Origin: an uncultured archaeon
GTDB lineage: Archaea; Aenigmatarchaeota; Aenigmatarchaeia; CG10238-14; SCSR01
Direction of reading: 5' to 3'
NCBI GenBank assembly: GCA_964646855.1
Contig: CAZYHQ010000001.1
Span: 3,414-67,413 of the forward strand
DNA: 64,000 nt
In this document: one piece after another, positions 26,311 to 43,934 of the stretch
Layout: the number at the start of each line of letters is the position of its first letter
Position numbering within the stretch: position 1 is the first letter of the stretch
Program-made: the position numbers and the translations under genes
Notes under the pieces: generated by a model
Database searches by the model: none
Told to the model about the DNA's origin: nothing
Seen by the model: only the letters and a program-made list of their open reading frames with translations

Positions 26311-27624
26311 ATGAAAGTTTCTGTGATTGGTACAGGTTACGTAGGCCTTACCGCTGCCTGCCTAGCGGATTTCGGGCACAATGTTGTTTTAATCGGCAGG
26401 AGCAAAGACAAAATCGATGTGATTAACCAAGGAGCCTCGCCAATCTACGAGCCCGGTCTGGACGAAGTATTGAAAAGAAATATATCCGCTGGCAGGCTAC
26501 ACGCAACCACAGACTACAAAGAAATTGACGACAGCGACGTTGTTTTCATCTGTGTCGGTACGCCGTCCAACGATGACGGCTCTATAGATTTGTCTCAGGT
26601 CGAAGAATGCTCAATCCAAATCGCCGAGCGTCTGAAGAACAGCAGCAAATACAAAATCATAGTAGTCAAGAGCACCGTAGTGCCCAAAACCACAAAAAAC
26701 TTTGTCATACCAGTTCTCGAAAAGCATTCCGGTAAAAAAGCCGGCAAGGATTTTGGAGTCGGCATGAACCCGGAATTTTTGCGCGAAGGCACAGGAGTTT
26801 ATGATTTTGTGAACCCGGACAAAATTGTCATCGGCGGGCTTGATGAAAAATCTACTGCAACACTCTCAACCCTTTACGAAAATTTTGATAAAAAATTCCA
26901 CCGTGTTACAACAGATTTGACAACCGCGGAGATGATAAAATACGCGCAAAATTCCGCTCTGGCAGCAAGGATATCATTCATTAACGAGATTGCAAACATC
27001 TGCGAAAAATATTCCGTTGATGTCAAAGAAGTCGCTCATGCCATAGGTCTCGACACCAGAATAGGCCAGAGATTTTTGAGCGCCGGCATCGGTTTTGGCG
27101 GCAGCTGCTTTCCTAAAGACGTCAACGCTTTGATCTCAGCAGCAAAAGCCGTGGGCATAAACCCAGTTTTTCTTCAAACCATAATGGAAATCAACGAGCG
27201 GCAGCCACACAGACTAGTTGAGCTGGCAAAAGAAGCCGCCGGCGACCTGCATGGCAAAACAATTGCTGTGTTAGGTCTGGCATTCAAAAATGATACGGAT
27301 GATATGCGCGAATCGCGAGCAACGCCAATAATCAACAGCCTGCTGCACGCAGGCGCAAACGTGAGGGCTCACGACCCAAGAGCAATGGAGAACGCGAAGG
27401 AAATTTTCGGAGACAAAATTGAATACTGCAATTCCAAAGAAGAGTGTGTCCGCGGTGCGGATTTGTGCATGATCGTAACAGAGTGGGACGAATTCAGAAA
27501 TTTGGATTTGAATTCTGTGAAATGCCCGGTTATCGACGGCAGGAGAGTTCTGGATCCCGAGAAGGCAAAGTCACACGGATTAATTTACAAAGGAATAGGT
27601 TACAAGGGAAATTTTGGTGTTTGA
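26311..27624 (+). CDS. nucleotide-sugar 6-dehydrogenase (UDP-glucose / UDP-ManNAc dehydrogenase family)
   Basis: N-terminal Rossmann motif KVSVIGTGYVGL, catalytic region GFGGSCFPKD, 437 aa. Confidence 0.85.
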   Translation: MKVSVIGTGYVGLTAACLADFGHNVVLIGRSKDKIDVINQGASPIYEPGLDEVLKRNISAGRLHATTDYKEIDDSDVVFICVGTPSNDDGSIDLSQVEECSIQIAERLKNSSKYKIIVVKSTVVPKTTKNFVIPVLEKHSGKKAGKDFGVGMNPEFLREGTGVYDFVNPDKIVIGGLDEKSTATLSTLYENFDKKFHRVTTDLTTAEMIKYAQNSALAARISFINEIANICEKYSVDVKEVAHAIGLDTRIGQRFLSAGIGFGGSCFPKDVNALISAAKAVGINPVFLQTIMEINERQPHRLVELAKEAAGDLHGKTIAVLGLAFKNDTDDMRESRATPIINSLLHAGANVRAHDPRAMENAKEIFGDKIEYCNSKEECVRGADLCMIVTEWDEFRNLDLNSVKCPVIDGRRVLDPEKAKSHGLIYKGIGYKGNFGV

Positions 27625-28449
27625 ATGAAAGCGATAATTCTTGCCGCTGGCAGGGGCACCAGACTGAGGCCACTAACGTACGGCATACCTAAACCGCTGC
27701 TTCCGGTAAAAGGCAGGCCAATGTTGGACTGGGTAATCAGCAGCATCGTAGACAAATCCATCGACGAAATTATTGTTGCAGTTTCCGGAACTGTTGGCAA
27801 CGACGCAATGGAAAGAGTTTTGACACACATTCACGGAATTTGCATCGATTCTTATCTGAAAAACGCAAACTACAATTTTAACATAAGAACAATTCCAACC
27901 CCGCAAAGAGAGACTGCCGGTGACTTGAGATATGTGCTTGAAGAGATTGGTATGAGAAGTGGCGAAGTGCTGGTTGTCTACGGGGACAACATTACCTCAT
28001 TTAACATGTCACAGTTTGTCGATTATCACAGAAGTTGCAGAAAAGAGCTTGGAACTTCTGCGTCAGTCGTCTTGTTCGAGGCTCCGGAGCAAGAATTGCA
28101 CAGATTCGGCATAGCAAAAGTAAACCAAATAAAAAATTTCACCATGATTGAAAAATTCGTTGAGAAACCTTCATTGGCCGAAGCGCCATCAAGACTTGCC
28201 AGCGCAGGTTATTACATTTTGGAAGTTGGAGATGTGCTGGAAGCACTTTCACGCGAGAAGGTCAAAGTTGAAAATTCTTTGTTTCCAACACTGGCATCCC
28301 AAGGCAAACTGGCAGGGTTTGTTACCAAACTGCCATACTGGATTGACATAAGTACGATGGAAGCTTACAATCTCGCCAATCAGCTTGCGCACGACAATCT
28401 CATTTTGCCGCCACCTGTTCACGATGATAAGGATGGACGAAATAGTTAG
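27625..28449 (+). CDS. sugar-phosphate nucleotidyltransferase
   Basis: MKAIILAAGRGTRLRPLT...PKPLLPV signature of the NTP_transferase family. 274 aa. Start overlaps the upstream stop. Confidence 0.75.
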   Translation: MKAIILAAGRGTRLRPLTYGIPKPLLPVKGRPMLDWVISSIVDKSIDEIIVAVSGTVGNDAMERVLTHIHGICIDSYLKNANYNFNIRTIPTPQRETAGDLRYVLEEIGMRSGEVLVVYGDNITSFNMSQFVDYHRSCRKELGTSASVVLFEAPEQELHRFGIAKVNQIKNFTMIEKFVEKPSLAEAPSRLASAGYYILEVGDVLEALSREKVKVENSLFPTLASQGKLAGFVTKLPYWIDISTMEAYNLANQLAHDNLILPPPVHDDKDGRNS

Positions 28450-29461
28450 ACAGGATCTGGAAAAAATAAAATCGGACATTTCAGATCTTCATTCAAAAAT
28501 TCAGGGAAAGACATTTTTGGTTACCGGCGGCGCTGGATTCATCGGAAGTTGGATTTGCGATTTGTTGGCAGACCTCGGCGCAAAAGTCATTTGCGTCGAC
28601 AACCTAGTTACAGGCTCGGAAAAAAATTTGCAGAACAGAAACCAAAACATGCAATTCGTCAACTCTGACATAACAAACTTCGAATTCAAAGGCGACTGCG
28701 ACTACATAATACATCTGGCTGCAATACCTTCCCCGCTTGTTTATTTGGAAAGGCCGATAGAGACTTTGAACACGAGCATAACAGGGACAAAAAATATTTT
28801 GGAGATTGCACGTAGAACAAACGTCAAGGGTTTTATTTTTGCAAGTACTAGCGAGGTGTATGGCGACCCACCAGCCGACATGGTTCCGACATCAGAAAAC
28901 TTTTTCGGTTATGTCAATCCAGTTGGTGCAAGAGCAGCATACTACGAAGGGAAAAGAATTGCAGAAACGCTCTGCTCGCTATATTGGAAAGATTACAAGA
29001 CGCCTGTTAGAATTGCCAGACTGTTCAACACGTATGGTCCAAGATTAGATTTTAAGCTCCCGTCCTCTTATGGACGGGCCGTGATTAATTTCATCAAGCA
29101 ATCTCTAAACAACGAACCTGTTTTGGTTTTCGGCGACGGAAAACAAACACGCAGCTTCTGCTACATTACTGACACAATAACCGGAATACTTAGGTTGCTG
29201 TTAATTGACGGACTTGACGGTAAGGTAATCAACATCGGTAATCAGGAGGAAATTAAAATCATCGATCTGGCTGAAAAAATAATTTCATTTACAAACCCAA
29301 ATTCGAAAGTTGCTTTTAAACAGTTGCCTGAAGATGATCCGCTGAGACGACTACCTGACATAACAAAAGCCCAGCAACTGTTGGGTTACAAGCCAGCTGT
29401 AGGTTTGGACGAAGGTCTGAAGCGTACTATAGAATGGGCAAGAGTTCACTTCACGATGTGA
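28424..29461 (+). CDS. NAD-dependent epimerase/dehydratase, UDP-glucuronate decarboxylase (UXS)-like
   Basis: [12 protein letters not shown] motif, with the DNLVTGS and YxxxK features of extended SDRs of the UXS type. Sits downstream of the nucleotide-sugar dehydrogenase. Confidence 0.75.
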   Translation: MIRMDEIVRQDLEKIKSDISDLHSKIQGKTFLVTGGAGFIGSWICDLLADLGAKVICVDNLVTGSEKNLQNRNQNMQFVNSDITNFEFKGDCDYIIHLAAIPSPLVYLERPIETLNTSITGTKNILEIARRTNVKGFIFASTSEVYGDPPADMVPTSENFFGYVNPVGARAAYYEGKRIAETLCSLYWKDYKTPVRIARLFNTYGPRLDFKLPSSYGRAVINFIKQSLNNEPVLVFGDGKQTRSFCYITDTITGILRLLLIDGLDGKVINIGNQEEIKIIDLAEKIISFTNPNSKVAFKQLPEDDPLRRLPDITKAQQLLGYKPAVGLDEGLKRTIEWARVHFTM

Positions 29462-29467: not shown

Positions 29468-30406
29468 ATGATGAAAATTTTAGTGACAGAACCGGAATTT
29501 TTTTATGAAGATTTCTTTGAAACCCTTCAAAAATCTGGGAGCTCGGTTGTAAAAATTTTTGGCAGTGACTCGCTGGTTAAAGAAATTGTTGACGCAGACA
29601 TACTCATAATAAGAGTCGGGACAACCGTTGGCAAAGAACTTTTAGACAGGGCCAAACAACTGAAACTGATAGTATCGGCTACGACCGGTTTGAACCACAT
29701 AGATATGGAGTATGCAAAAGAAAAGAAAATAGAAATCTTCAATCCTGTCGGATATGCGACCGAATCAACGGCCGAACATACCTTCGCTTTGATTTTAAGC
29801 TTAGCTAGGAGGATTCCATGGGCATTTCAGTCAGTTGCTGTTGGCGAATGGGAGCGACACAAATTTTCTGGCGTGCAGCTCTCAGGAAAAGTTTTAGGAA
29901 TAATCGGTCTCGGCAGGATAGGAAAAGAAACAGCCAAATATGCACTCGCATTCGGCATGAAAGTTTTAACTTACGACCCCTACATTACGAAAGAAATTGC
30001 TACTGATGCAGGTTCAGAAATGGTCTCGTTGGAAGAACTTTTGTCCAAATCAGACTTCATAACTGTAAATGTTGCACTAACTCCGGAGACACAAGGCATG
30101 ATTAACAAAGACATTTTTAACAAAATGAAAAAAGGTGCAATGTTAATTAACACTTCGCGCGGCGCCGTGATTAATGAAAACGATTTGGTTGAAGCTCTTG
30201 AGTATGGAAAAATTTCCGGAGCGGCTTTGGACGTTTTCGCAACCGAACCATTGACTGTAAACAGTTCGCTGATTACATACTCCAAAAATCACACCAATCT
30301 CCTGCTAACTCCGCATATAGGAGGTTCTACGGACCAGTCGATGAGGAATGCGTGCGATCGCATAACGGCAAAATTAAAAGAGCTTCTAGAGAAATCTGGC
30401 TCTTAG
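29468..30406 (+). CDS. D-isomer-specific 2-hydroxyacid dehydrogenase (phosphoglycerate dehydrogenase-like)
   Basis: NAD motif GIIGLGRIGKETA plus the catalytic region (TSRGAVIN, HIGGST). 312 aa. Confidence 0.75.
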   Translation: MMKILVTEPEFFYEDFFETLQKSGSSVVKIFGSDSLVKEIVDADILIIRVGTTVGKELLDRAKQLKLIVSATTGLNHIDMEYAKEKKIEIFNPVGYATESTAEHTFALILSLARRIPWAFQSVAVGEWERHKFSGVQLSGKVLGIIGLGRIGKETAKYALAFGMKVLTYDPYITKEIATDAGSEMVSLEELLSKSDFITVNVALTPETQGMINKDIFNKMKKGAMLINTSRGAVINENDLVEALEYGKISGAALDVFATEPLTVNSSLITYSKNHTNLLLTPHIGGSTDQSMRNACDRITAKLKELLEKSGS

Positions 30407-31057
30407 CGCCGCAAACAAAAAGTTCAGTATATCATTGAAAAATTTCAGTTTCGACCTGCCTCTCCTTTCTTCAAAATCAATCGGAACATCTTTGTATCTG
30501 TAACCTTTTCGGATTGCCATCGTTGTAAACATAACTTCGTATTCCAGGCCGCCCTTAGGTTCTATCTTCTTTGCAATCGGAAGTTTCGTCAGCTCCTTTT
30601 TGAAAATTCTCATCCCGCTTGTCGCATCGGTTATCCTTGTAAGATTAATAACTGATATCACCAACGAGCCGACTATGTTCGCCAGATTCCGAAACCAAGG
30701 AAGACCTTTTGCAAAACCTTTTGCAAATCTCGAGCCCACAACCAAGTCATTGTTTTTTATCGCAGCAATCAATTTCGGGAAATCTTCAGGCGGATAAGAA
30801 GCATCCGAGTCTATCGTCCCGATTATATCATGCTTTGCGTGTTCGTATCCAGTTTTCAGCGCGTATATCTTGCCCTTGTTCGGCACGTATCTTACAACTT
30901 TAACCCCAGTCTTCTTTGCTTCCATGTATGTCTTGTCGGTAGAGCCGTCGTCCACCACGATTATTTCGGCGTCTGGCAAGGTTTTTTTAGTGCGCTGTAC
31001 CACTTCCCGGATAGATTTTTCTTCGTTGTAGGCAGGAATTATTATCGAAATTTTCAT
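30386..31057 (-). CDS. GT2 glycosyltransferase (dolichyl-phosphate sugar synthase-like)
   Basis: ISIIIPAYNEE, VVDDGSTD and DSD(A) motifs. 223 aa. DPM-synthase-like architecture. Confidence 0.8.
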   Translation of the reverse strand: MKISIIIPAYNEEKSIREVVQRTKKTLPDAEIIVVDDGSTDKTYMEAKKTGVKVVRYVPNKGKIYALKTGYEHAKHDIIGTIDSDASYPPEDFPKLIAAIKNNDLVVGSRFAKGFAKGLPWFRNLANIVGSLVISVINLTRITDATSGMRIFKKELTKLPIAKKIEPKGGLEYEVMFTTMAIRKGYRYKDVPIDFEERRGRSKLKFFNDILNFLFAALRARFL

Positions 31058-31092
31058 CTTATTAATTTTGAATTGAGGTTAATTATAAATAG

Positions 31093-31803
31093 TTGAATCA
31101 AATGTCAGCAGAGATTAGCGTAATCGTACCGGCGTATAATTCGGAAAAGACTTTGAAAGTCGTCACATCACAACTGCTCACAGAGTTGAGGAAAATCAAA
31201 AAAGGTTCCGAACTAATTATAGCGGAAGACGGAAGCACAGACAATACCTATCAGCTCGCCAAGGGCATTTCGAAAAGCCACAAAAATGTCAGACTAATCC
31301 ACTCAGATGAAAAATTAGGAAAGGGCGGAGCTCTAGGAAACGCTTTTTTCAAAGCCAGAGGCAGAAAAATAATTTTCATCGATGCGGATTACATCGATGT
31401 TCCCAAATTTCTGCCTCAAATGGTAAACGCTCTTGACAGGTTTGATGTTGTCATAGGAAGCAGGTACCAGAAGCCATCAAAGACAAAAAGAATTTTTAGA
31501 AGGCTGGTGGCAAGCAAGGTTTACATATTCTTGGCAAAACTTTTCTTCTTTCTCCCGTTTTCAGATCTGCAGTGTGGGTTCAAAGGAATGAATAAAAAGG
31601 TTGTAGGGATGCTGAAAAATGTCAAGTCCAGAGATTATTTCTGGGATACGGAATTTTTAGTAAAGGCAAGCAGAGACGGTTACACCATTTCCGAGATTCC
31701 AATAACTTGGATCGAAAAAAAATCCAAACACTCTGCGAGTTTGCTCAAAAACTCATTTAAGTTCGTGAAATCTTTAATTAAATTAAGATTAGGACTTTTA
31801 TGA
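31093..31803 (+). CDS. GT2 glycosyltransferase (dolichyl-phosphate sugar synthase-like)
   Basis: ISVIVPAYNSE, AEDGSTDNT and DADY motifs. 236 aa. Overlaps the next gene by 4 nt. Confidence 0.75.
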   Translation: MNQMSAEISVIVPAYNSEKTLKVVTSQLLTELRKIKKGSELIIAEDGSTDNTYQLAKGISKSHKNVRLIHSDEKLGKGGALGNAFFKARGRKIIFIDADYIDVPKFLPQMVNALDRFDVVIGSRYQKPSKTKRIFRRLVASKVYIFLAKLFFFLPFSDLQCGFKGMNKKVVGMLKNVKSRDYFWDTEFLVKASRDGYTISEIPITWIEKKSKHSASLLKNSFKFVKSLIKLRLGLL

Positions 31804-33383
31804 AAATCAGATTGAGCGCGCTCTGGTTGCTTGGAATTCTTGTACTAGCTGTAATTTTCAGATTTTACAATTTGAATGAGCCGATGGTGTGGGTAGACGA
31901 GCCCATCTACATAGTCGGCGGTATCAAACTACTTTTGCAGGACAGGAACCTTTACGACCCAAGCTTGTGGAATTTCGAGCACCCGCCATTGTCAAAATAT
32001 CTAATTGGTATAACCACGACTTTCGCTCCGGTGAGCTTTGACGCAATAACACAGCTCCCACCGAACTACTATGTAGGATTAGGAAACCCGAACGTGGCAG
32101 AGGCTATGGACGCGGCGTTGACATTTTCAAGATCTTCTGCGGCGGTCTTCGGCGTTCTGCTAGTTCTGATAGTTTACTTGTTCGCAAGAAACCTGTACGG
32201 TGAAATTAATGCAATACCCGCTGGTCTCATGGCTGTTCTATCTGTGGACCTTCTCGCTTTCAGCAGAAATGCGCACTTGGACATCTTTCTGTTTTTCTTT
32301 TCAACTTTAGGCGTATATTTATTTTACAAATTTGTTAACTCAGAAGGAAGCAGACTCGCCTTTTCAAAAACGGATTTCAAACTCGTGTTAAACAACAGGC
32401 TAGTTTATCTATTATCTTCCGCACTAGCTGTAGGATTGTCTTTATTGACAAAAACCATCCAACCATTCATTTTGTTACCAGTTTTCATTGTGCTATACTT
32501 CGTATTCAGGCAAAAAATCTCTTTACCAGAAATCCTAATATTTTTCTTAATTTCAATCGCTGTTTTTTTCATAGGACTCGGCGGCAACTTGGAACTATAC
32601 TCACAGGCAGTTTCCTATTTTGGCGGCGACGGGTCCCTAATTAATTTCTCCAACATTATCAATTCCAGTAAAATACTTCTCAGAATACAACCTGCGTTGA
32701 CAGTAATTGTCTTGATTGCTGCAATAAGTTTCTTGCGCAGAAAGAATTTTGTGAACAACGAGCTATTCGCAATTATCCCGGCTATGTTCATAATTTTATC
32801 ATTCATACTTACGACAAATCAACATTACAGGTATTTCGATTTCGCACTGCCGTTCTTGATAATTTTTTCAGCCCGAATTTTCTCGACACGTAAAGCAATT
32901 TACTATTCTGTCCCGCTGTTCGCGCTGTTACTCTACACAGCAGTTGTTTGGTCGCCAGACTATCTTATTTACACAAATCTATTGGACGAGCTGACTGGGA
33001 GAAGCTATTTCTGGTCTAACTTCGGCTTCACAGGGTTCAGCGAATCGGCAAACTACCTGAAGGAAAAGACAACTCAGGATGATTTAATTTTTTCCTCGGA
33101 CGATGCTATAAGATACAGGCTAAGTAGAAACCTTATTGTACATGAAAACGGCAGGAACACAGTCTATCTTGTAGACGGGAGGTTTGCAGATTTGGAATCC
33201 AACAGATGTCCTACCATAGACGATTTGAAATTAAATAATGTAACATACGCAGTCGTCGCGAATCCCATCAGCTTGGGGGATGAATACTGCAGTACAATCA
33301 AAGACCTTTACAGAACTTTGGAACCGGTCCTGACAGTCCATAAAAACAATGTGGACGTAATGAAAGTTTTCAAGTTGGTGTAA
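31800..33383 (+). CDS. GT-C family membrane glycosyltransferase (ArnT / PMT-like, GT39/GT83-type)
   Basis: 527 aa, ~11 TM helices. The first extracytoplasmic loop carries an acidic motif (VWVDEP) typical of GT-C enzymes that use polyprenyl-phosphate sugar donors. Confidence 0.6.
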   Translation: MKIRLSALWLLGILVLAVIFRFYNLNEPMVWVDEPIYIVGGIKLLLQDRNLYDPSLWNFEHPPLSKYLIGITTTFAPVSFDAITQLPPNYYVGLGNPNVAEAMDAALTFSRSSAAVFGVLLVLIVYLFARNLYGEINAIPAGLMAVLSVDLLAFSRNAHLDIFLFFFSTLGVYLFYKFVNSEGSRLAFSKTDFKLVLNNRLVYLLSSALAVGLSLLTKTIQPFILLPVFIVLYFVFRQKISLPEILIFFLISIAVFFIGLGGNLELYSQAVSYFGGDGSLINFSNIINSSKILLRIQPALTVIVLIAAISFLRRKNFVNNELFAIIPAMFIILSFILTTNQHYRYFDFALPFLIIFSARIFSTRKAIYYSVPLFALLLYTAVVWSPDYLIYTNLLDELTGRSYFWSNFGFTGFSESANYLKEKTTQDDLIFSSDDAIRYRLSRNLIVHENGRNTVYLVDGRFADLESNRCPTIDDLKLNNVTYAVVANPISLGDEYCSTIKDLYRTLEPVLTVHKNNVDVMKVFKLV

Positions 33384-35179
33384 TGCAGATTAAATTCCGG
33401 ATTACAAAAACAAAAATTGTCCTAGTCGCATTTCTAGTGCTTTTAGCAGGACTCTACTGGAATTCCCGTCAGCACGTACTGACATACGACGATTACAGAG
33501 ACATGCATCTGGGAAAAAATCTTCTAAGCGGACAGTACAGTTTTTTCGGCGACGCTTACTTCAAGCATCCACCATTGTACATGATGACTCTAGCAGCAAG
33601 TTTTTCAATTTTCGGTTTTGGCGAAGACGCAGGTTACATCGTTTCAATTTTCTTTGCTCTGGCAACTTTATTCATTACTTTCCTGTTCGCAAGAAAAATT
33701 ACAAATAACAAAATCGCGTTCGCCGCAATTGCGATACTCGCTGTCAACCCTTGGTTCGTGCAGTTTGCAAGAGATTTGCGTTTTGAAATGGCAACAACCT
33801 TCTTTTTCATTCTGAGCCTTTACATGTACTGGAGATTTTTTGAAACCAGCAACAAAAAATATCTCATCGCATCCGGCGTTTCGATTGGCTTGGGCCTTTT
33901 GACAAAATCTTTTATCTTTCTGCTGTTTCCAGCGTATTTACTTTTCGTAATTCTGCTGGCGTACAAGAAAAAACACAGTTTCGTTAAAGGATTTTTCCAT
34001 CTAGCAATCATGACAGCAATCGCATTTGTCGTTTACTTACCGTGGATTGCGTACGGCTCCTTGAACCACGGACCATCACAGCTTACAGCGCAGATAGAAG
34101 AGTTCACAGGCAAACTAAGTTGGGCTCCGGATTATGTGCCGCCACCGTTCTACTTTTACATTCAAGAATTACCTAAAGTGCTTACGTATCCCATAATGTT
34201 ACTTTCCATACTCGGATTTGTTTACTTCATTAAAAATAAATCGAAAAGTTTGTTGTTAGTGTTGTGTTGGATTTTTGTTTACTTCATTTTTGTTTCGATA
34301 ATGGGTTGGAAGGAAGGCAGGTTTTTGATGTACATTTTGCCAGGATTTGCTGTTCTAGCTGCTCTGGGACTAAACTGGATTTTGCCGAAAATCAAGCTAG
34401 CTAAGAGTAGTATATTTTGGATTTTTGTAATCTCGGTGATTTTCTTAACAGTTACGCCAATAACATTTCTAGGCATCTCTAACGACGTCTTCAGCCAACT
34501 GTGGCCATATGCAAAATCTCCTGCTGATTGGGAACTTTGGGATTATGTTGACCAGCTTGTGGACAAAAACGACTATCTGCTAACAAACAATTATGGAATG
34601 GTTGAAATTTATTCACGACCGTCTGATGCTTTGTTTAAAAATTGGCAGACTGATTCGATGAGATTTTTGATGTTCGATTCACAGTATGCATTGATCGAAA
34701 CCAACGTTGATTATCCAAGAAACTCCCCAGAAATTTTCACTCCCATAAAGAGTTTTAATTTTGTCACGTACGAAAATAACATTTCTCTAATACTTTACAA
34801 GGTTGATTTGGAAAAACTGTCGCAGCTGATTTATGGCAACAACACAATAAAGGTTACCGGAAAGATCTATGACGTAAACACCGGTCAAAGCATACACAGA
34901 GCAAAGCTGCTTGCTGCAGACCCCTCTTCTGGCCAGCTAATCGGTATATTTTATTCCAAAATGGACGGAACAGTTACTGCTTACCTACCAGCGCACGCTA
35001 CTTATTTAATGCAGACAAGCGCTTTTGGATACGAGCTGAAGAATTTGCTTGTTGATTTGAAACCAGACGCTATTACAATTTGTGAAACACAAAACCAGTG
35101 CTTTCAGAAACCCAGTCTGGAAATTGGTTTAGCCTTCAAAAGTTTTCTTGTCCATGAATATCCGAACGTAAGATTCTAA
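33383..35179 (+). CDS. GT-C family membrane glycosyltransferase (ArnT / PMT-like), paralog with a large C-terminal soluble domain
   Basis: 598 aa. N-terminal multi-TM region followed by a ~200-aa C-terminal extracytoplasmic domain. Start overlaps the previous stop by 1 nt. Confidence 0.6.
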   Translation: MQIKFRITKTKIVLVAFLVLLAGLYWNSRQHVLTYDDYRDMHLGKNLLSGQYSFFGDAYFKHPPLYMMTLAASFSIFGFGEDAGYIVSIFFALATLFITFLFARKITNNKIAFAAIAILAVNPWFVQFARDLRFEMATTFFFILSLYMYWRFFETSNKKYLIASGVSIGLGLLTKSFIFLLFPAYLLFVILLAYKKKHSFVKGFFHLAIMTAIAFVVYLPWIAYGSLNHGPSQLTAQIEEFTGKLSWAPDYVPPPFYFYIQELPKVLTYPIMLLSILGFVYFIKNKSKSLLLVLCWIFVYFIFVSIMGWKEGRFLMYILPGFAVLAALGLNWILPKIKLAKSSIFWIFVISVIFLTVTPITFLGISNDVFSQLWPYAKSPADWELWDYVDQLVDKNDYLLTNNYGMVEIYSRPSDALFKNWQTDSMRFLMFDSQYALIETNVDYPRNSPEIFTPIKSFNFVTYENNISLILYKVDLEKLSQLIYGNNTIKVTGKIYDVNTGQSIHRAKLLAADPSSGQLIGIFYSKMDGTVTAYLPAHATYLMQTSAFGYELKNLLVDLKPDAITICETQNQCFQKPSLEIGLAFKSFLVHEYPNVRF

Positions 35180-35204
35180 ATAACTTCAGAAACTTCTAAA
35201 ACAC

Positions 35205-36572
35205 TTATTCAATTTTGTAAATATCAATGTAACCTGACATAACTTTTTTGACGTTAGGTTGCTTTTCAATGAACTCTGGAAGAGGGCCATCAAAGTAAAT
35301 ATAATTTATTTTGTATTTTTCTACGTTTTCCAAGAACTCCTGCTCACTGGAACCAGCAGGAACCCAATTTCTTTTCGTGTACAACCAAAGCCATGCATGC
35401 GCATTTGTCATCACGGTTTCATTTTCTGATGTCATATCTTTCACATATAATGCCGCGTTTTTTCTGTCCAAACTCTCAGCAAAGTATGCTCTAATTTCGA
35501 TGAAACTCGGCAATTGTTTGAATTCTTGATGGGGATTGATGAAAAGATACGTGACAACGTATCCGACTACAAGATTTAGGGAAAGCGAAATCAAAACAAG
35601 CGCTACAAGCCTTTTGCTGCTTCGATCAAAACCACCGAAAGCAAGAATTGCAATGAAAGGCAGAAGCGGTATCAAATATCTGAACGATGACAGAATAAAA
35701 CCGTTCGCCACAAGGAAAACCACAATAAAAATTACACTGAACTTTTGCCAAGTCAGTTTCGGTTTTGATTTGTAGAATTTGTAAATACCATAAACGAAAA
35801 ACGGCGTGGAGAAAAGAGGAAGCAACCAAAAATACAAAACATAATTAGTGGGAAATTCAAATTTTTCGAACTTCAGTTGCGGAGAATTAGCGATTACTTC
35901 ATTTGAATTAATTGCAAAATCAATGAACGGGTATGCAATCAACAGAGACACAATAATGCCTACAAAAAAATACTGCGTGGTTAAAATTTTTTTCAACCAA
36001 CCTCTCTCGAGAGTGAGAAAGTAAATAAGGTATATCACGGGAATTATAAAAAGATTGTATCGTGTCAATATCGCCAAGACCAAAGTTGCCGCAAACGGGA
36101 CGAAGAACCTAACATCCTTGCGCATTTTTACGAAAAGGTAGAAGGACAGCACAACGAGTAAAATGGACAGCATTTCCACAAAAATTCTATTCGAAAAGAA
36201 AACAACAAGATGGTTAGTAGCCAAAAACAAAGTTGCAAGCAGGCTTACCTTCTTTGAGTAAAAACTCTTCAAAACAGTGTAGAAAATTACTACCGACACA
36301 ACAAACAACATCGATACAAAAATCTGAGCAACTGCAATCTCTGCACCAAATATAGAAAATAAACCTGCAAGCATTATAGGAAACAAAGGAGGTCGAAACG
36401 CCTCTACATTAAGATTTCCTATATAGCCGTATTCCTTGCCTTCAGCTAAGCTTTCTGCCAGACCCAAATAGACGGCCTCGTCCCACGAGAAAGAGACATT
36501 GATATCGAATGTAGCTAACCGAATTCCGATTACAACCAATAACAATAAAAGAAGAAATTTTTCTAGTTTCAT
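35205..36572 (-). CDS. GT-C family membrane glycosyltransferase (ArnT / PMT-like), third paralog
   Basis: 455 aa. N-terminal pattern (FSWDEAVYLGLAESL...FRPPLFPIM) is typical of PMT_2/ArnT-like GT-C enzymes. Multiple TM helices. Confidence 0.6.
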   Translation of the reverse strand: MKLEKFLLLLLLVVIGIRLATFDINVSFSWDEAVYLGLAESLAEGKEYGYIGNLNVEAFRPPLFPIMLAGLFSIFGAEIAVAQIFVSMLFVVSVVIFYTVLKSFYSKKVSLLATLFLATNHLVVFFSNRIFVEMLSILLVVLSFYLFVKMRKDVRFFVPFAATLVLAILTRYNLFIIPVIYLIYFLTLERGWLKKILTTQYFFVGIIVSLLIAYPFIDFAINSNEVIANSPQLKFEKFEFPTNYVLYFWLLPLFSTPFFVYGIYKFYKSKPKLTWQKFSVIFIVVFLVANGFILSSFRYLIPLLPFIAILAFGGFDRSSKRLVALVLISLSLNLVVGYVVTYLFINPHQEFKQLPSFIEIRAYFAESLDRKNAALYVKDMTSENETVMTNAHAWLWLYTKRNWVPAGSSEQEFLENVEKYKINYIYFDGPLPEFIEKQPNVKKVMSGYIDIYKIE

Positions 36573-36943
36573 TACGACTCCAACTTTTCCAATTTAACCT
36601 TCCCATCTTTTACGTCAGTTACGGTGTACCCATTTTTCTTGTAAAAGTTAATAACCTTGTCATCACCGATTGTTATCGCCCAAGGATTTTTCGGCTCGGT
36701 CTGCTCCAAGAGCAAAGAACCAACACCCATTCCCTGCGCTTTTTTGCTGACGGTAATTACACCCAATCTTCTGCCAGACCAAATTGCTATTCCAGATATT
36801 TTGTTCTCTTCGACACAAACGTAGGCCGTACCGCGTATTATACCCCTGACTAGAAAATAAAAAAAGCTCGGAAACAACCAATATTCTTTTTGCACACGTA
36901 TTACATCAATAACTTCACTAAGTTTCATCTTTCTTACTTGCAT
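36572..36943 (-). CDS. GNAT-family N-acetyltransferase (tentative)
   Basis: Acetyl-CoA-binding-like motif (KKAQGMGVGSLLLE) and C-terminal FYKKNGY. 123 aa. Confidence 0.5.
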   Translation of the reverse strand: MQVRKMKLSEVIDVIRVQKEYWLFPSFFYFLVRGIIRGTAYVCVEENKISGIAIWSGRRLGVITVSKKAQGMGVGSLLLEQTEPKNPWAITIGDDKVINFYKKNGYTVTDVKDGKVKLEKLES

Positions 36944-37023
36944 AATTTATTTCAGCCTCGCACACGAATTAAATTAAACATTTGTTCGAAAGATTTTTAT
37001 ATTCTATGGTCGTATGGTTTATA

Positions 37024-38217
37024 ATGAAAATTTGTTACCTCACCAGAATATTCCCACCGCGCATTGGCGGACCCGGGACGCTAACACACTTAATAGGGAC
37101 ACAAATGGTGAAGAGGGGTTTTGGTGTTACGGTCGTCACACAAAACAAAGGCGACGCCCCAAAGTACGAAGTCATCAACGGCATGAAGGTGCACAGGACT
37201 TTTTGTTTTTCAAACGAGTTTACGCCATACAACTTATCGATATCGACTGTACTGTTCATAAAAAAAGTTTTAGGACAGCTTGAACACAACGACATGTTCC
37301 AGGCAATGGACATTTCTGTCGCTGGATTCGGTGGCTACATAGCAAAGCACTTTTCAAAAAAGCCGTTCTTCCTGCACTATGGAGGAGATTTGGTCTTCGA
37401 ATTCCTTTCTCTGAAAAAACAAAAAAACTGGGATCCAAAAAAAGGCGTGACTGGAGCTTTAGAACAAAAAAGTCTTACTGCAAAAGTACTGCTGGCGATT
37501 CAAAATGACTACATGGAAAAATACAACGTCATTATTCCGGACAGCGAATTTGGGGAAAGACTGTTGCTAGAAAAGTTCCATGTTCCTAAGGAAAAGGTCA
37601 AGCTCATAGTTAACGGCGTGGATACGCAGAGATTCAAGCCTTCCAACAAGGAGCAGGCAAAAAAGAAACTTGGCTTGAACGGGCGGATAATTCTGACTGC
37701 TACACGCCTTGTGCCTTGGAAGGGAATAGATTTTTTAATCAAATCCATGCCAGCTGTCTTGAAAAAAATCCCTGATACGAAACTTATGATAGCCGGCGAG
37801 GGAATAATGTACGATAGGCTGCGCATTCTAGCAGAATCTTTGAAACTGGGGAATCACGTGAAACTTCTTGGCAGAGTACCTGAAGATTTGATGCCGTTTT
37901 ACATGAAGGCGTGCGATGTTTACGCCTTGCCATCATTTTTTGACACGGTTCCAAATATACTTTTGGAGATAATGTCATCCGGGAAACCGACAATAGTCTC
38001 TGACATAGACGGTTTGCGTGAAGTTGTCACAAATAAAACGAGCATCAAGATTCCAGTTGGGGATTCCGATGTGCTTGCAGAAAAATTGATTGAAGTGCTC
38101 TCGAGTTCAGATAAGATGCAGAAGATGGGTGCAGCCGCACGAAGGAACATACTACAAAAATACTCAAGAGAAAAAATGATTAAAGAATATGTGAAGTTGT
38201 ACGAATCTTGGTCGTGA
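37024..38217 (+). CDS. GT4 (GT-B fold) glycosyltransferase
   Basis: N-terminal PPRIGGPGT loop and C-terminal E-x7-E region (LPSFFDTVPNILLEIMSSGKPTI). ~398 aa from the ATG at 37024. Confidence 0.8.
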   Translation: MKICYLTRIFPPRIGGPGTLTHLIGTQMVKRGFGVTVVTQNKGDAPKYEVINGMKVHRTFCFSNEFTPYNLSISTVLFIKKVLGQLEHNDMFQAMDISVAGFGGYIAKHFSKKPFFLHYGGDLVFEFLSLKKQKNWDPKKGVTGALEQKSLTAKVLLAIQNDYMEKYNVIIPDSEFGERLLLEKFHVPKEKVKLIVNGVDTQRFKPSNKEQAKKKLGLNGRIILTATRLVPWKGIDFLIKSMPAVLKKIPDTKLMIAGEGIMYDRLRILAESLKLGNHVKLLGRVPEDLMPFYMKACDVYALPSFFDTVPNILLEIMSSGKPTIVSDIDGLREVVTNKTSIKIPVGDSDVLAEKLIEVLSSSDKMQKMGAAARRNILQKYSREKMIKEYVKLYESWS

Positions 38218-38717
38218 TTATTACGTTTATCAAAACACCACATCAATTTCTTGTAGAAAGAGAACTACGAAAATATGCAGCCAACAAAACAAATAAAAAA
38301 ATTCTAGAAATAGGGTCGGGAACCAGCAGTTACAGAAATTTTTTTGAAAAATGTTCCTTTCTCGCGACAGACATTAGAAAATTTTCTGGTGTAGACGAAA
38401 TAGCCGATGTAACAAAACTACAATACAAATCCAATTCGTTTGACATTGTGATTTGTGTAAGCGTTTTAGAGCATGTGAAGGACTACAACAAGGCCGTGTC
38501 AGAAATTTTTAGAGTCTTGAAACCTGGTGGTGAAACAGTCATTGCAGTACCCTTTTTATTTCCGTTGCATGATGTGCCAGGCGACTATTGGAGATTTACT
38601 GTTTACGCACTAAAAGAAATTTTGAAAAAATTCTCTAAGGTTATTGTAAAACCGATAATACCTTCAAAATTCCTTTGGAGATTTGTTCTCGACTACTTTG
38701 TTGTCGCGAAGAAATAA
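38208..38717 (+). CDS. class I SAM-dependent methyltransferase
   Basis: Motif I (ILEIGSGTSS), a post-I acidic residue, and motif LKPGG. 169 aa. Confidence 0.65.
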   Translation: MVVIITFIKTPHQFLVERELRKYAANKTNKKILEIGSGTSSYRNFFEKCSFLATDIRKFSGVDEIADVTKLQYKSNSFDIVICVSVLEHVKDYNKAVSEIFRVLKPGGETVIAVPFLFPLHDVPGDYWRFTVYALKEILKKFSKVIVKPIIPSKFLWRFVLDYFVVAKK

Positions 38718-38742
38718 ATACTGCGCGGCTCATTTTATTTGT

Positions 38743-39696
38743 ATGAAATTCTCGACACGCCCATTAGTTTTTGTTGGACTTGCAATTTTCGCCTACATAG
38801 TTTATAGTGTTGGCCTTGAAAAGATAATTAATATCTTGACAAAGGTTGACCCCTTCTACCTTTCGATTTCGTTACTTTTCCCCTTGCCCACTATAATTCT
38901 GAAAGCCCTAAGATGGAAATTCATTATAAGTTATCTTAATACAGATTACAATTTCTTAAAATCGATAAAGGTCTGGCTAATTGGTTCCACGCTAGGCATA
39001 ATTACTCCGGGCCACTTGGGAGATTTTTCCCGCAGTTTTTATCTACACAGAGACACAGGAATGAGTTTGGGTAAATCGTTTTCAACAACTGTTTTAGACA
39101 GATTTTTTGACATCGCCGTGCTATTGGTTTTATCAGTTTTTGGAATAATATATATTCTGATTACTTATAGCGTGTCTTTATTCACACCAACCATAGTCGT
39201 AGTTTTTATCTTCTTTGGAATTTTTTTACTTGGCGTAATCAAAAGAAAGTTCATAAGTTTTTTACTCAAACCATTTTTTAATTTTCTTACGCCACAGAAA
39301 TATAAAAGTTCTTTGATAGAAGGTTTCAACGAATTCTACAAGGGGCTGAAAATAATTCTAGAATGGCGAAAATTTGCGGTTTTGTCTGGTCTATCTATAG
39401 TTTCTTGGTTTGTTTCCATACTGCAGGGTCTAATAATTCTAAAAGCATTCGGGATCGACGCACCATTCCTGTTTCTTCTTTCTGTTTTCCCTATAGAGGT
39501 ACTAATTTCTCTTTTGCCAATAACAATCTCTGGGTTTGGAACGAGGGAGCTTACGTTCATTTTCTTTTTCTCAATAATTGGCGTGGCTGCTGACACAGTA
39601 ATAGCATTTTCATTGATCAGCGTTTTTCTAATTTGGGCAATGGTAGCAGTCGGGTTCTTTTTCTGGTATAGAAACCCGATAAAAATTGAGTTATAG
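38743..39696 (+). CDS. flippase-like polytopic membrane protein (lysylphosphatidylglycerol-synthase-TM / UPF0104-like)
   Basis: ~8 TM helices with a topology typical of the family often found beside GT2 genes in archaeal glycosylation loci. Start trimmed to the ATG at 38743. Confidence 0.5.
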   Translation: MKFSTRPLVFVGLAIFAYIVYSVGLEKIINILTKVDPFYLSISLLFPLPTIILKALRWKFIISYLNTDYNFLKSIKVWLIGSTLGIITPGHLGDFSRSFYLHRDTGMSLGKSFSTTVLDRFFDIAVLLVLSVFGIIYILITYSVSLFTPTIVVVFIFFGIFLLGVIKRKFISFLLKPFFNFLTPQKYKSSLIEGFNEFYKGLKIILEWRKFAVLSGLSIVSWFVSILQGLIILKAFGIDAPFLFLLSVFPIEVLISLLPITISGFGTRELTFIFFFSIIGVAADTVIAFSLISVFLIWAMVAVGFFFWYRNPIKIEL

Positions 39697-39704: not shown

Positions 39705-40847
39705 TTATTTCACTTCTCTGCTAACTTTTTCGATAGCACCAAACATTTCTTCCAGTTCTTCTTCAGTCATCTCAGGATACAGTGGTAGTGTGATTATAGA
39801 TTTTGATATTTCCTCTGCAACTGGCAGTGATATCCTGCCAAACAGGTTTGTGTAAAACGGCTGCAAGTGTACCGGCGGATCGTAATGGACGGATGCGCCT
39901 ATGCCGGCCTCCCTCAACTTTTCAAGAAAAGTTCTTCTGTCCTTGCCGACGATTCTGGCTGTGTACATGTGATAACTGTGTTTGTGATTATCCGGTGTGT
40001 TTTGCGGTACAATAAAATCAAACTGCTCGAGGAATTTTGTAATTTTCTGGGCGATTTTAATTCTGTTCTCTATGTTTTCGTTTATCCTTTTCAGCTGTCC
40101 TATTCCCATCGCCGCTTGGAAATTGGTCATCCTGAAATTGAATCCGAGGTCACTTTGGATCCTCTCCCAAGGATATTTTGCATAAGATCGTGCCCACGTT
40201 GATTTGTCTATACCGTGGCCGGCAAACTTCAAAACCTTTTCAGCAATTTCATCTTGGTTGGTTGTCACCATCCCACCCTCACCTGTTGTTATGTGTTTGG
40301 TAGAGAAGAAGGAGAAACACCCGAGCCCGAAACTTCCGGCTTTTTTCCCGCCGAATTCGGCACCAAGTGACTGCGCGACGTCTTCCACTACATGCAAATT
40401 ATTTTTTTCGGTCAATTCGGAGAGCCTTGCCATGTCGCATGTAAGGCCCGCGTAATGAACAGGCACTATCGCTTTTGTTCTGCTTGTCATCTTTTTTCCC
40501 GCATCCTCAATGTCCATGTTGAACGTATCCAATTCGGATTCCACAAAAATTGGTTTCGCTCCGCAATACATGACAGCGTTCGCGGTTGCAACAAATGTAA
40601 AAGAGGGGACTAATACCTCGTCGCCAGGCTTGATGCCGCTTGCCACCAAAGACAAGTACAAAGCCGAAGTGCACGAGTTAACCGACACAGCCCTTTTAAC
40701 ACCAATGTAATTCGCAAAAAGGTTTTCAAACTCTTCGTTCTTATCTCCGTAAGTGAACCAACCGGATTTCAAAACTTCTATTACGTCGTTTATTTCCTTT
40801 TCAGTGATGTTCGGTTTCATTAACGGTATCATGATATCACATTTCAA
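39705..40847 (-). CDS. DegT/DnrJ/EryC1/StrS-family PLP-dependent sugar aminotransferase
   Basis: PLP-lysine region SFFSTKHITTGEGGMV with N-terminal NSCTSALYLSL. 380 aa. Confidence 0.85.
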   Translation of the reverse strand: MKCDIMIPLMKPNITEKEINDVIEVLKSGWFTYGDKNEEFENLFANYIGVKRAVSVNSCTSALYLSLVASGIKPGDEVLVPSFTFVATANAVMYCGAKPIFVESELDTFNMDIEDAGKKMTSRTKAIVPVHYAGLTCDMARLSELTEKNNLHVVEDVAQSLGAEFGGKKAGSFGLGCFSFFSTKHITTGEGGMVTTNQDEIAEKVLKFAGHGIDKSTWARSYAKYPWERIQSDLGFNFRMTNFQAAMGIGQLKRINENIENRIKIAQKITKFLEQFDFIVPQNTPDNHKHSYHMYTARIVGKDRRTFLEKLREAGIGASVHYDPPVHLQPFYTNLFGRISLPVAEEISKSIITLPLYPEMTEEELEEMFGAIEKVSREVK

Positions 40848-40850
40848 TAA

Positions 40851-41873
40851 TCACTCAAAGCGCAGGTCTGCCGCTTTAGCTTCTAACAAATTTTTGTAAC
40901 GTTTAACAGTTTGATATTTCTCACTCTCAAAATCTTCTTTTTTCAGTTCAATTGTTTTCAAATATTCGTGGACCTCTTTCACACCATCTCTGACACTGAT
41001 TTTCGGAGCAAATCCTAAAACATCTTTTATTTTTGTGAAATCCACTTGGTATGTTCTTTGGTCATTGTTGCTGCCAGCGATGCGTACAATCTTTGTGTTT
41101 GACACTTCTTCTGAAACTATTTTTGCAATATCTTGTACTTGGTGATTTTGTGAATCGCCGCCGACATTAAAAATTTGACCACCAACAGATTCAGAATCTG
41201 CCCGCGATGCCAGCAGGAATGCACGCGATATGTCCTTTATGTGCACCAAAGGCCTCCATATAGTTGCTTCGGATGCGAGCTCCAATGTGCTAGTCATAAA
41301 TGCGCGAGCTGTCATGCTGTTAACAACCAAATCAAACCTCATTCTCGGCGAGACGCCAAAAGCTGTAGCACTCCTCAACACGACCGTTTTGAAATTTTTA
41401 TTAGACATATTTAAAATTTCTTTTTCTGATAACAGTTTTGATTTTGCATATGCAGTGAGCGGTTTGCATTCAGAATATTCATTAACCATACCATTGCTCA
41501 CACCATACACAGCGCAACTAGATGAGAACAAAAATTTTTCCACCCCGGACAATTTCGATAATTCAACTAGTTTTTTGGTTGCCAGAAAATTTATTTCATT
41601 TGTAAGTCTCGGGTTCAATTCTCCGGACGGATCGTTCGAGATTGCAGCCAAATGTACTACGACGTCTATACCATTCAAATCATTCTCGGAAATGTCTCTT
41701 ACGTCTTTTATTATTTGTCTAAAATTTTCTCCGAATGTCGTATCAGGCAAGAATTCTTTGAAATGCCCAGCATCTAGGCCAACAACTTCAAAATTATTTG
41801 AAAGAAAAGTCTGTGTTAAAACGTGTCCGATGTAACCTAAATTACCGGTGATTAGAACTCTCATTTTTACCAA
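40851..41873 (-). CDS. NAD-dependent nucleotide-sugar epimerase/dehydratase
   Basis: VLITGNLGYIGHVL Rossmann motif and catalytic YAKSK. 340 aa. Paralog of 45849-46886. Confidence 0.8.
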   Translation of the reverse strand: MVKMRVLITGNLGYIGHVLTQTFLSNNFEVVGLDAGHFKEFLPDTTFGENFRQIIKDVRDISENDLNGIDVVVHLAAISNDPSGELNPRLTNEINFLATKKLVELSKLSGVEKFLFSSSCAVYGVSNGMVNEYSECKPLTAYAKSKLLSEKEILNMSNKNFKTVVLRSATAFGVSPRMRFDLVVNSMTARAFMTSTLELASEATIWRPLVHIKDISRAFLLASRADSESVGGQIFNVGGDSQNHQVQDIAKIVSEEVSNTKIVRIAGSNNDQRTYQVDFTKIKDVLGFAPKISVRDGVKEVHEYLKTIELKKEDFESEKYQTVKRYKNLLEAKAADLRFE

Positions 41874-41880
41874 CTCAAAA

Positions 41881-42972: not shown

Positions 42973-43072
42973 ATCAACAACTTTCTGAGAAAAATATAAA
43001 CTTTTGGTTTTTAAAGTTAAGTGAATCTCTGATTCTAACAAGTTATTTAACCGCATATTTCATCTAAAATTT

Positions 43073-43924: not shown

Positions 43925-43934
43925 TTTAATTACA

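Follow-up and report, generated by a model that had tools for sequence, protein, structure and literature searches.

We analysed a cluster of five glycosyltransferase (GT) genes at 30386–36572 of a 64,000-nt stretch of DNA from an uncultured archaeon (contig CAZYHQ010000001.1), here called the window, with positions counted from its first letter. The open reading frames (ORFs), which have no long competitors in this interval, are GT2a (30386–31057, minus strand, 223 amino acids (aa)), GT2b (31102–31803, plus strand, 233 aa), GTC1 (31800–33383, plus strand, 527 aa), GTC2 (33383–35179, plus strand, 598 aa) and GTC3 (35205–36572, minus strand, 455 aa). A previous interpretation made from the letters alone (the sequence-only reading) had put five genes here, two GT2s followed by three GT-Cs. 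ORFs of matching extent, Pfam matches and a conserved order in independent assemblies bear out the genes; the five do not all run in one direction, GT2a and GTC3 lying on the minus strand. Because orthologues at 38–89% identity hold the same order in those assemblies, we regard the five ORFs as true genes rather than chance. The GT2b frame opens at TTG 31093, and its start is probably ATG 31102, judging from 233-aa orthologues and from an alignment to L009 (62% identity) that begins at M4. L002, L004, L005, L009, L010, L011 and L012 are our labels for the homologue-bearing loci that we compared with the window.

The stop codon of GT2b and the start codon of GTC1 overlap as ATGA, those of GTC1 and GTC2 as TAATG, and because of these overlaps we treat GT2b-GTC1-GTC2 as one operon. 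GT2a is a lone divergent gene, separated from GT2b by an AT-rich spacer of ~44 bp with TATA-like elements. GTC3 lies behind a small GNAT acetyltransferase gene (36572–36943, minus strand; Pfam Acetyltransf_7, 2.1e-7) with a 1-nt stop/start overlap, is co-transcribed with it and converges on GTC2. A glycan island of ~30 kb, running from ~26 to 56 kb, encloses all five GT genes. The window is archaeal, since it encodes fibrillarin, Nop5, a Hel308-like helicase, Kae1 and a family B polymerase, and since NAC and AglB are encoded at L004. GC content over 30–36 kb is 0.38–0.41, inside the overall window range of 0.34–0.45 and with no compositional break at the cluster, and nothing in this profile hints at a recent acquisition of these genes by transfer.

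On sequence evidence, joined for GTC1 and GTC2 by predicted folds, the three larger proteins are members of the GT-C superfamily, fold class A (ArnT/PMT/STT3-like). GTC1 matches Pfam PMT (PF02366; 3.8e-12, 46.7 bits against a gathering score of 22.7 bits) and PMT_2 (3.8e-6), GTC2 matches PMT_2 (1.5e-22), Glyco_transf_22 (7.5e-9) and PMT (2e-8, 34.5 bits), and GTC3 matches PMT_2 (3.1e-10) with no PF02366 match; each of these hits is above its gathering score. Among solved structures, GTC2 finds ArnT (5ezm) at 7e-9 with phmmer and 4e-8 with a profile, and the GTC3 profile finds ArnT at 1e-6 over residues 7–342, in both cases at ~13–15% identity. GTC1 has no sequence match to ArnT, and no GT-C matches the NCBIfam ArnT model at E ≤ 0.01. 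The sole PDB match of the GTC1 profile is a weak one to Archaeoglobus fulgidus AglB (E 0.0048), confined to the region of transmembrane (TM) helices 3–6; the Pfam PMT and ArnT fold matches of this protein are stronger.

AlphaFold2 (AF2) gave models of GTC1 (predicted local distance difference test score, pLDDT, 88.1; predicted template modelling score, pTM, 0.91) and GTC2 (pLDDT 83.8). With Foldseek, the GTC1 model finds ArnT first (5f15; 2.2e-9, TM-score 0.54), followed by AglB, Pmt4, ALG12, ALG9 and STT3, and the GTC2 model also finds ArnT first (3.9e-11, TM-score 0.61), followed by AglB and ALG12. For both, all matches with E < 1e-3 are GT-C enzymes. We rejected a transporter identity for GTC1 and GTC2, as transporters and G-protein-coupled receptors appear only at E > 0.3 with TM-scores of ~0.1. 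WWD[YWFN]G, or even WW, is absent from GTC1, GTC2 and GTC3, no Pfam STT3 (PF02516) match was found in any of them in a scan at E ≤ 0.01, and the archaeo_STT3 match in NCBIfam reaches 19 bits against a cut-off of 450. Because both the WWDxG motif and the Pfam STT3 match are missing, we do not regard the GT-Cs as oligosaccharyltransferases; the AglB similarity of the GTC1 TM region does not make an STT3/AglB identity tenable. The sequence-only reading had assigned these proteins to the ArnT/PMT type rather than to STT3/AglB, and had framed relatedness to transporters as the alternative; the Pfam matches, the sequence matches of GTC2 and GTC3 and the folds of GTC1 and GTC2 agree with its choice. 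In NCBIfam, GTC2 matches the Agl23 family (TIGR03663) over nearly the full model at 54.9 bits, GTC1 at 32.0 and GTC3 at 31.4, all under the cut-off of 126.25.

A hydropathy scan shows at least 10 hydrophobic segments in each GT-C, with C-terminal tails of 143, 231 and 109 aa in GTC1, GTC2 and GTC3. In the AF2 models of GTC1 and GTC2, ~11 TM helices are followed by alpha/beta domains, so that the C-termini are soluble alpha/beta or beta domains; GTC1 has a first outer loop of ~78 aa and a C-terminal alpha/beta domain of ~140 aa. No MIR domain or PMT_4TMC match was found in any GT-C (Pfam, E ≤ 0.01). GTC2 alone has an extra C-terminal beta-sandwich at residues ~488–583 resembling CarboxypepD_reg/CnaB, for which Foldseek returns CnaB2 and carboxypeptidase D domain II. 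Going by its modelled fold, this domain could be a carbohydrate-binding or acceptor-binding module. It carries two invariant cysteines, C567 and C573. Matches of GTC2 residues ~335–440 to PLL/PHL lectins (E 2e-5 to 5e-4) we judged spurious: they fall on a Trp-rich stretch, which the AF2 model folds as a TM helix and a small alpha/beta domain with no beta-propeller.

Each orthologue group conserves W-x-D-[DE] right after TM1 and [HR]-P-P ~25 residues further on. The residues invariant in orthologues are W31-V-D33-E34 and E60-H-P in GTC1; D36-[DE]37, K61-H-P-P and R130-D-L-R-F-E135 in GTC2; and W30-D31-E32, F59-R-P-P and R298-Y in GTC3. In a 34-sequence alignment of the superfamily, the Asp after TM1 is the only invariant column. 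HMMER alignments to ArnT pair its D-E and E-K-P-P with the GT-C motifs, with ArnT K85 (YFEKP) replaced by H or R here. The D-[DE] motif would lie outside the cell according to the positive-inside rule, given a short K/R-bearing N-terminus and an acidic loop 1 in the hydropathy analysis. A DE/DD motif in the first extracytoplasmic loop had been predicted from the letters, and it is found directly after TM1 as D33-E34, D36-D37 and D31-E32. The GTC3 orthologue of L004 (19908–21302, minus strand) retains W-D-E, yet carries SRSRYF in place of the otherwise invariant F-R-P-P-L-F.

The three GT-Cs are ancient paralogues, ~15–22% identical by sequence comparison. BLASTP aligns GTC1 with GTC2 at 22% identity (N-terminal 200 aa) and GTC2 with GTC3 at 22%, and finds no match between GTC1 and GTC3. 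Profile-profile comparison with hhalign relates all three pairs (GTC1/GTC2 97.3%, GTC1/GTC3 98.9% and GTC2/GTC3 99.7% probability; E 1.9e-11 to 2.9e-27), and the GTC1/GTC3 and GTC2/GTC3 alignments reach into the first C-terminal soluble domain. The paralogy that had been proposed thus stands at the profile level; close kinship does not, BLASTP identity being 22% at most and nil for one pair. Each GT-C has its own orthologues in genomes as far away as 33–43% identity. We therefore take the triplication to be old, with every copy kept, and this favours a separate specificity for each of the three. GTC1 itself has a tiny orthologue group: of 1.84 billion cluster representatives, 3 score >700 bits, the next scores 158 bits, and 185 have E ≤ 1e-10. 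One homologue, P0029, is 71% identical to GTC3 and is labelled ‘glycosyltransferase family 39 protein’ in the public record. It lies on a 2-kb contig that NCBI labels ‘Candidatus Babeliales bacterium’; this contig is probably mis-binned, because all longer contigs with orthologues have archaeal context.

GT2a and GT2b, 25% identical to each other, match Pfam Glycos_transf_2 (PF00535) at 9.7e-32 and 2.4e-31, above gathering scores. The best PDB match of both is the Pyrococcus furiosus dolichyl phosphate mannose (Dol-P-Man) synthase PfDPMS (5mlz), with its residues 23–233 aligned to GT2a 1–206 at 4e-26 and its residues 22–244 aligned to GT2b 5–229 at 1.6e-15. GtrB and ArnC rank next for both (4.2e-15 and 4.8e-12 for GT2b). 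This agrees with the proposal that the locus encodes two DPM-synthase-like GT2s. Both proteins contain DxD and D-x-x-[SC]-G-[FM]-[RK], present as DSD at 83–85 and D144ATSGMR in GT2a and as DAD at 97–99 and D158LQCGFK in GT2b. In NCBIfam, GT2a scores best against a haloarchaeal Dol-P hexose transferase model (1.6e-29, 102.5 bits, cut-off 375) and then AglJ (3e-26, 92.5 bits, cut-off 325), with PpgS also among the best; the best match of GT2b is PgfS (68 bits, cut-off 500). As these matches are far below equivalog cut-offs, the sugar that the GT2s use cannot be named. The hydropathy scan finds no hydrophobic segment in GT2a and one weak internal segment (138–156) in GT2b.

Of the properties that mark a polyprenyl-phosphate GT2, both proteins have the catalytic domain, the DxD motif and an alignment that runs through the acceptor-side helices of DPMS, and both lack a TM anchor and an equivalog-level sugar assignment. 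From its sequence, GT2a is probably a GT-A glycosyltransferase, soluble or peripheral, of the polyprenyl-phosphate type represented by DPMS, AglJ and PpgS, and GT2b is probably a second GT2 resembling DPMS, GtrB and ArnC. Compatible-solute synthesis of the GpgS kind, an idea suggested by the adjoining 2-hydroxyacid dehydrogenase gene, is less likely: GpgS matches are at 1e-7 to 1e-8 and cover the N-terminal half only, against stronger DPMS matches.

Immediately upstream of the cluster, on the same strand as GT2b, lies a nucleotide-sugar operon. Its first gene (26311–27624) encodes an AglM-like UDP-glucose 6-dehydrogenase with three UDPG_MGDP_dh Pfam domains; it scores 518.8 bits against AglM (E 1e-155), under the equivalog cut-off of 670, and a nucleoside-diphosphate-sugar dehydrogenase subfamily model scores above its own cut-off. 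The second (27625–28449) encodes a sugar-1-phosphate nucleotidylyltransferase resembling AglF, GalU and RmlA (Pfam NTP_transferase, 1.6e-32; sub-threshold matches only in NCBIfam). The third (28424–29461; the ORF opens at 28385 and orthologues suggest 345 aa) encodes a UDP-glucuronate decarboxylase, that is, a UDP-xylose synthase (UXS)-type short-chain dehydrogenase/reductase (SDR). A phmmer search of the PDB pairs it with human UXS1 (2b69; E 2.5e-76, 260 bits), with the next family at 147 bits and ArnA at 85 bits (NCBIfam). The fourth gene (29468–30406; Pfam 2-Hacid_dh_C, 2.2e-62) encodes a D-isomer-specific 2-hydroxyacid dehydrogenase, and its 3′ end overlaps GT2a convergently. This enzyme is phosphoglycerate dehydrogenase-like in the window and in L005, and an unrelated Ldh/Mdh-family gene occupies the same position in L002 (6103–7008). 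This suggests a non-orthologous replacement in L002, and that the pathway includes a redox step between 2-hydroxy and 2-keto acids.

On the other side, a divergent plus-strand operon starts with a GT4 (GT-B) cytoplasmic glycosyltransferase (36982–38217; Pfam Glycos_transf_1, 2.6e-35), continues with an S-adenosylmethionine (SAM)-dependent methyltransferase (38208–38717; Methyltransf_11, 2.2e-15) and ends with a flippase-like membrane protein of the PF03706/UPF0104/MprF flippase domain type (38683–39696; LPG_synthase_TM, 1.6e-47). The last gene, ~2 kb downstream of the GT-Cs, scores 139 bits against TIGR00374 (cut-off 43.2), and by analogy its product is a likely candidate for the Dol-P-sugar translocase. 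Further downstream the island holds a deoxy-amino-sugar pathway, a second GT4 and a Wzx/AglR-type flippase of the Polysacc_synt/MATE-like kind (49042–50511, plus strand; Polysacc_synt 1.8e-12, MatE 2.6e-7). Going by the genes alone, all three component types of a lipid-linked transfer system, synthase, flippase and GT-C, are present within 30386–39696.

Much of this arrangement recurs in related genomes. The order from the UDP-glucose dehydrogenase gene through the PF03706 gene is kept in L002 and L005, as is the GNAT-GTC3 pair, and GT2b-GTC1-GTC2 is kept in L009 at 47–62% identity with GT4, PF03706 and methyltransferase genes nearby. A methyltransferase gene is found near the GT-Cs in L002, L004, L005 and L009, a PF03706 gene in L002, L005, L009 and L011, and the association of synthase, flippase and GT-C recurs in L002, L005, L009 and L011. 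Distant GTC3 homologues also have GT2 genes nearby, accompanied in L011 by a PF03706 gene, and the one in L010 has an S-layer protein gene at a distance of 1 kb. L004 is the furthest removed of the genomes with orthologues of all three GT-Cs; there, the GTC1, GTC2, GTC3 and GT4 orthologues surround AglB (STT3) and an AglH-like Glycos_transf_4 gene. A Wzx-like (Polysacc_synt) gene is also in that cluster, and the GT4 orthologue (29% identity) adjoins the GTC2 orthologue. Because the L004 orthologues flank AglB and the AglH-like gene, we tie the GT-Cs to a general surface or N-glycan pathway.

Taken together, we read the cluster as an archaeal three-component extracytoplasmic glycosylation module within a surface-glycan island, and give this reading a probability of roughly two in three. 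At the cytoplasmic face, a DPMS-like GT2 would load one sugar from a UDP-sugar onto dolichyl phosphate (Dol-P). Its translational coupling to GTC1 and GTC2 makes GT2b the safest candidate for this Dol-P-sugar synthase. GT2a may load another sugar; alternatively, it may act like AglJ and initiate the glycan on Dol-P, which would be in keeping with the lack of a phosphoglycosyltransferase in the window. The adjoining operon would make UDP-glucose (UDP-Glc), UDP-glucuronate (UDP-GlcA) and UDP-xylose (UDP-Xyl), so that glucose, glucuronate or xylose are the likely donor sugars. The Dol-P-sugar would then be moved to the outer leaflet, by the PF03706 protein as the likely translocase or by the Wzx-like protein. 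There, each GT-C, by means of the invariant Asp of D-[DE] in the first outer loop, would transfer its sugar to a different position or acceptor. The likeliest acceptors would be sugars of an N-linked or other surface glycan, as for Haloferax AglS and eukaryotic ALG3/9/12; we consider protein Ser/Thr or lipids less probable. We lean towards a glycan acceptor because of the L004 context beside AglB and AglH, a tentative preference held at slightly less than even odds.

Several points weigh against this reading. It is built on sequence, model and gene-context evidence. Every NCBIfam equivalog match of the GT2s and GT-Cs is far under its cut-off, so that a specific function is not transferable. 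In the hydropathy scan, the C-terminal TM helices of PfDPMS, GtrB and ArnC are absent from both GT2s, and without a TM anchor membrane association would need a partner or amphipathic helices; anchorless GT2s of this kind resemble DPM1 and Ppm1-type enzymes. GT2 enzymes of similar size (AglG, AglI and AglE) also extend lipid-linked glycans in the cytoplasm. There is neither AglB nor an obvious initiating phosphoglycosyltransferase among the scanned window ORFs of at least 150 aa. No GT2 gene lies within 10 kb of the L004 GT-Cs, and the pairing is thus not universal. Finally, of the named archaeal families the nearest is Agl23, which has been reported to act as a flippase and not as a transferase (PMC11182771).

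The sequence-only reading had stressed the novelty of such a cassette in archaea, and this was overstated. A neighbourhood of arCOG00899 (UPF0104 flippase), arCOG00563 (PMT/STT3-like GT, MJ_1079) and arCOG00897 (AglD-like GT2, MJ_1080) was described by Makarova and colleagues in 2015, who linked it to S-layer glycosylation by comparative genomics and proposed the flippase role of UPF0104 in archaeal glycosylation (PMC5898192). The window brings the same three protein types together, matched by type, and the triad recurs around distant homologues in L009 and L011; the difference is that the window's GTC1 orthologue group is tiny. Studied precedents also exist in AglD/AglR/AglS (PMC3871713) and Agl22/Agl23 (PMC11182771). 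The cluster is a lineage-restricted example of a system already described in archaea.

In Haloferax volcanii, AglD, AglR and AglS are the Dol-P-Man synthase, the flippase-associated protein and the Dol-P-Man mannosyltransferase (PMC3871713). The window resembles this system in logic, with AglS compared by role: a GT2 would load a separate Dol-P, the product would move outward, and a membrane transferase would add the sugar to a surface glycan. AglM-like and AglF-like genes adjoin the window cluster, a further likeness to Haloferax. AglD itself is a GT2 domain fused to a UPF0104 flippase domain (PMC5898192), whereas the window encodes these modules in two genes that lie 7 kb from each other in the same island. 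Where the Haloferax system has a single GT2 and a single membrane transferase, the window has two GT2s and three GT-C paralogues; its GT2s fall far short of the cut-offs for AglJ and the Dol-P hexose transferase, and its UXS gene suggests xylose or GlcA rather than mannose. For a glucuronate donor there is a precedent in AepG, a DPMS-like archaeal GT2 that makes Dol-P-GlcA. The Agl22/Agl23 system of Haloarcula hispanica, a GT2 with a multi-spanning TIGR03663 protein, handles Dol-P-hexose for N- and O-glycans (PMC11182771). The likeness lies in the pairing of a GT2 with a multi-spanning protein and in TIGR03663 being the sole NCBIfam family common to the three GT-Cs; however, at 31–55 bits they are not members of it, and Agl23 is described as a flippase.

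Outside archaea, the bacterial ArnC/ArnE-F/ArnT and GtrB/GtrA/Gtr* sets are three-component systems with the same synthase-flippase-GT-C logic. ArnT is the best solved match of the GT-Cs (GTC2 and GTC3 by sequence, GTC1 and GTC2 by fold), and ArnC and GtrB are among the best for the GT2s. In contrast to these systems, the window's flippase candidate is of the MprF/UPF0104 type rather than the SMR/GtrA type, the GT2s are without TM anchors, the sugar would be carried on dolichyl phosphate, and neither lipid A nor O-antigen can be the acceptor. In eukaryotes, the GT2s DPM1 and ALG5 supply Dol-P-sugars to the paralogous luminal GT-Cs ALG3/9/12, which extend a glycan beyond the membrane. The window recalls these enzymes in the significant fold matches to ALG12 and ALG9 and in the Glyco_transf_22 match of GTC2, although ArnT scores better and nothing points to an acceptor linked to dolichyl pyrophosphate.

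O-glycosylation or glycolipid decoration had been put forward as the purpose of the cassette, and nothing points specifically there. In the former case, at least one GT-C would work as a PMT does, adding one sugar, donated by Dol-P-sugar, to Ser/Thr residues of S-layer or other secreted proteins, which we consider unlikely. GTC1 and GTC2 do score above the Pfam PMT gathering score, Pmt4 and Pmt1/2 are among the significant fold matches, and the D-E motif of loop 1 resembles that of PMTs; yet ArnT comes first by sequence and fold, AglB and ALG12 also outrank the PMTs for GTC2, and for GTC1 AglB ranks above Pmt4, with ALG12 between Pmt4 and the other PMT entries. The MIR domain and PMT_4TMC module went undetected in the Pfam scan. 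O-glycans exist on archaeal S-layer proteins, no archaeal O-glycosyltransferase was found in the archaeal glycosylation literature covered, and Agl22/Agl23 provide Dol-P-hexose for O- as well as N-glycans (PMC11182771). The S-layer gene beside the distant GTC3 homologue of L010 is in keeping with this alternative; the AglB/AglH N-glycosylation cluster of L004 is not. The three kept paralogues suit three linkage-specific steps of glycan modification at least equally well.

A decoration route of the Arn/Emb kind, in which a UDP-GlcA-derived pentose or amino-pentose would be carried on Dol-P to membrane glycolipids or exopolysaccharide by ArnT-like GT-Cs, seems less probable still. ArnT is the closest solved relative, and the gene order of UDP-Glc dehydrogenase, UDP-GlcA decarboxylase, ArnC-like GT2 and ArnT-like GT-C parallels the Arn pathway. 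The island also has a GNAT protein and a DegT aminotransferase that matches ArnB (302 bits), and an archaeal exopolysaccharide, that of H. hispanica, draws on Dol-P-GlcA. However, the decarboxylase is UXS-type (260 bits) rather than ArnA-like (85 bits), the aminotransferase is nearer to PseC (360 bits) and sits in a separate operon of deoxyhexose type, no formyltransferase or deformylase was found, and the L004 context is an AglB cluster. Archaea are without lipid A, which also counts against this route. On the grounds of the decarboxylase type, the PseC-closer aminotransferase in another operon and the missing formyltransferase, we find no support for a true Arn (4-amino-4-deoxy-L-arabinose, L-Ara4N) pathway; a donor of Ara4N is not indicated.

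A further reading combines elements of both alternatives: the operon of UDP-Glc dehydrogenase and UXS might feed a DPMS-like GT2 that produces Dol-P-xylose or Dol-P-GlcA, and at least one ArnT-like GT-C might be a true Ser/Thr O-glycosyltransferase of surface proteins. We regard this as a longer shot again. If it held, the enzyme would be the first identified archaeal O-glycosyltransferase, and its lipid donor, bearing a pentose or uronate, would be one not yet known from protein glycosylation. Very improbable is that at least one GT-C-like protein is a translocator of lipid-linked sugars and not a transferase, as proposed for Agl23: the three GT-Cs share a match to just one NCBIfam family, TIGR03663 (‘flippase activity-associated protein Agl23’), and purified Agl23 moved lipid-linked oligosaccharide in vitro (PMC11182771), but the scores are well under the 126-bit cut-off, the strict conservation of the putative catalytic Asp and [HR]PP in each orthologue group fits catalysis, and a flippase-like gene and a Wzx-like gene are already present separately.

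If the preferred reading of an extracytoplasmic module fed by Dol-P-monosaccharides is right, part of the surface glycan of an uncultured archaeal lineage is assembled outside the cell with three separately conserved GT-Cs, which would be the same strategy as that of the eukaryotic luminal ALG steps and the bacterial Gtr and Arn systems. The locus offers three compact archaeal GT-Cs, of which GTC1 and GTC2 are well modelled, beside a likely donor pathway (UDP-Glc, UDP-GlcA and UDP-Xyl), so that donor and acceptor specificity could be tested in vitro. Comparative genomics and haloarchaeal genetics already describe the module, and the locus adds no new category.

Other features of the window and of the related loci are worth recording. 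The deoxysugar pathway at 39705–55618 comprises a long-form RmlA, several SDRs, the DegT aminotransferase, a nucleoside-diphosphate-hexose 2,3-dehydratase, a GFO/IDH/MocA oxidoreductase, a sugar C-methyltransferase (Methyltransf_13/14) and an RmlD-like reductase. The set is reminiscent of pathways to antibiotic sugars and resembles EvaA-E/TylC3-type routes to branched amino-dideoxy sugars, which would be unusual for an archaeal surface glycan. Its 2,3-dehydratase has just 247 aa and a single PF03559 domain. At the other border of the island, between it and a PAP2 phosphatase gene, a minus-strand gene (24625–26238) encodes a conserved 537-aa membrane protein that has no Pfam or NCBIfam match and whose outer domain of ~350 aa is flanked by a TM helix on the N-terminal side and a TM bundle on the C-terminal side; SecD and SecF genes are at the corresponding place in L002.

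In L012, an intein (Intein_splicing) splits a 791-aa SDR epimerase/dehydratase (3604–5979), whose gene immediately precedes that of a distant PMT_2 homologue. The L004 contig, on which NAC and AglB are encoded, starts with a SAM synthetase (1–1047) of the bacterial/eukaryotic MetK type (S-AdoMet_synt_N/M/C) rather than the archaeal type, and this gene could aid lineage placement. Beyond the glycan island, the window contains two very large genes of Tc-toxin/polymorphic-toxin type, both on the minus strand. One (58587–63575) encodes a protein of 1662 aa with SpvB, FG-GAP, TcdB_toxin_midN and RHS repeats, and the other (55615–57831) a 738-aa RHS-repeat protein; between them lies a 188-aa ORF with no family match.

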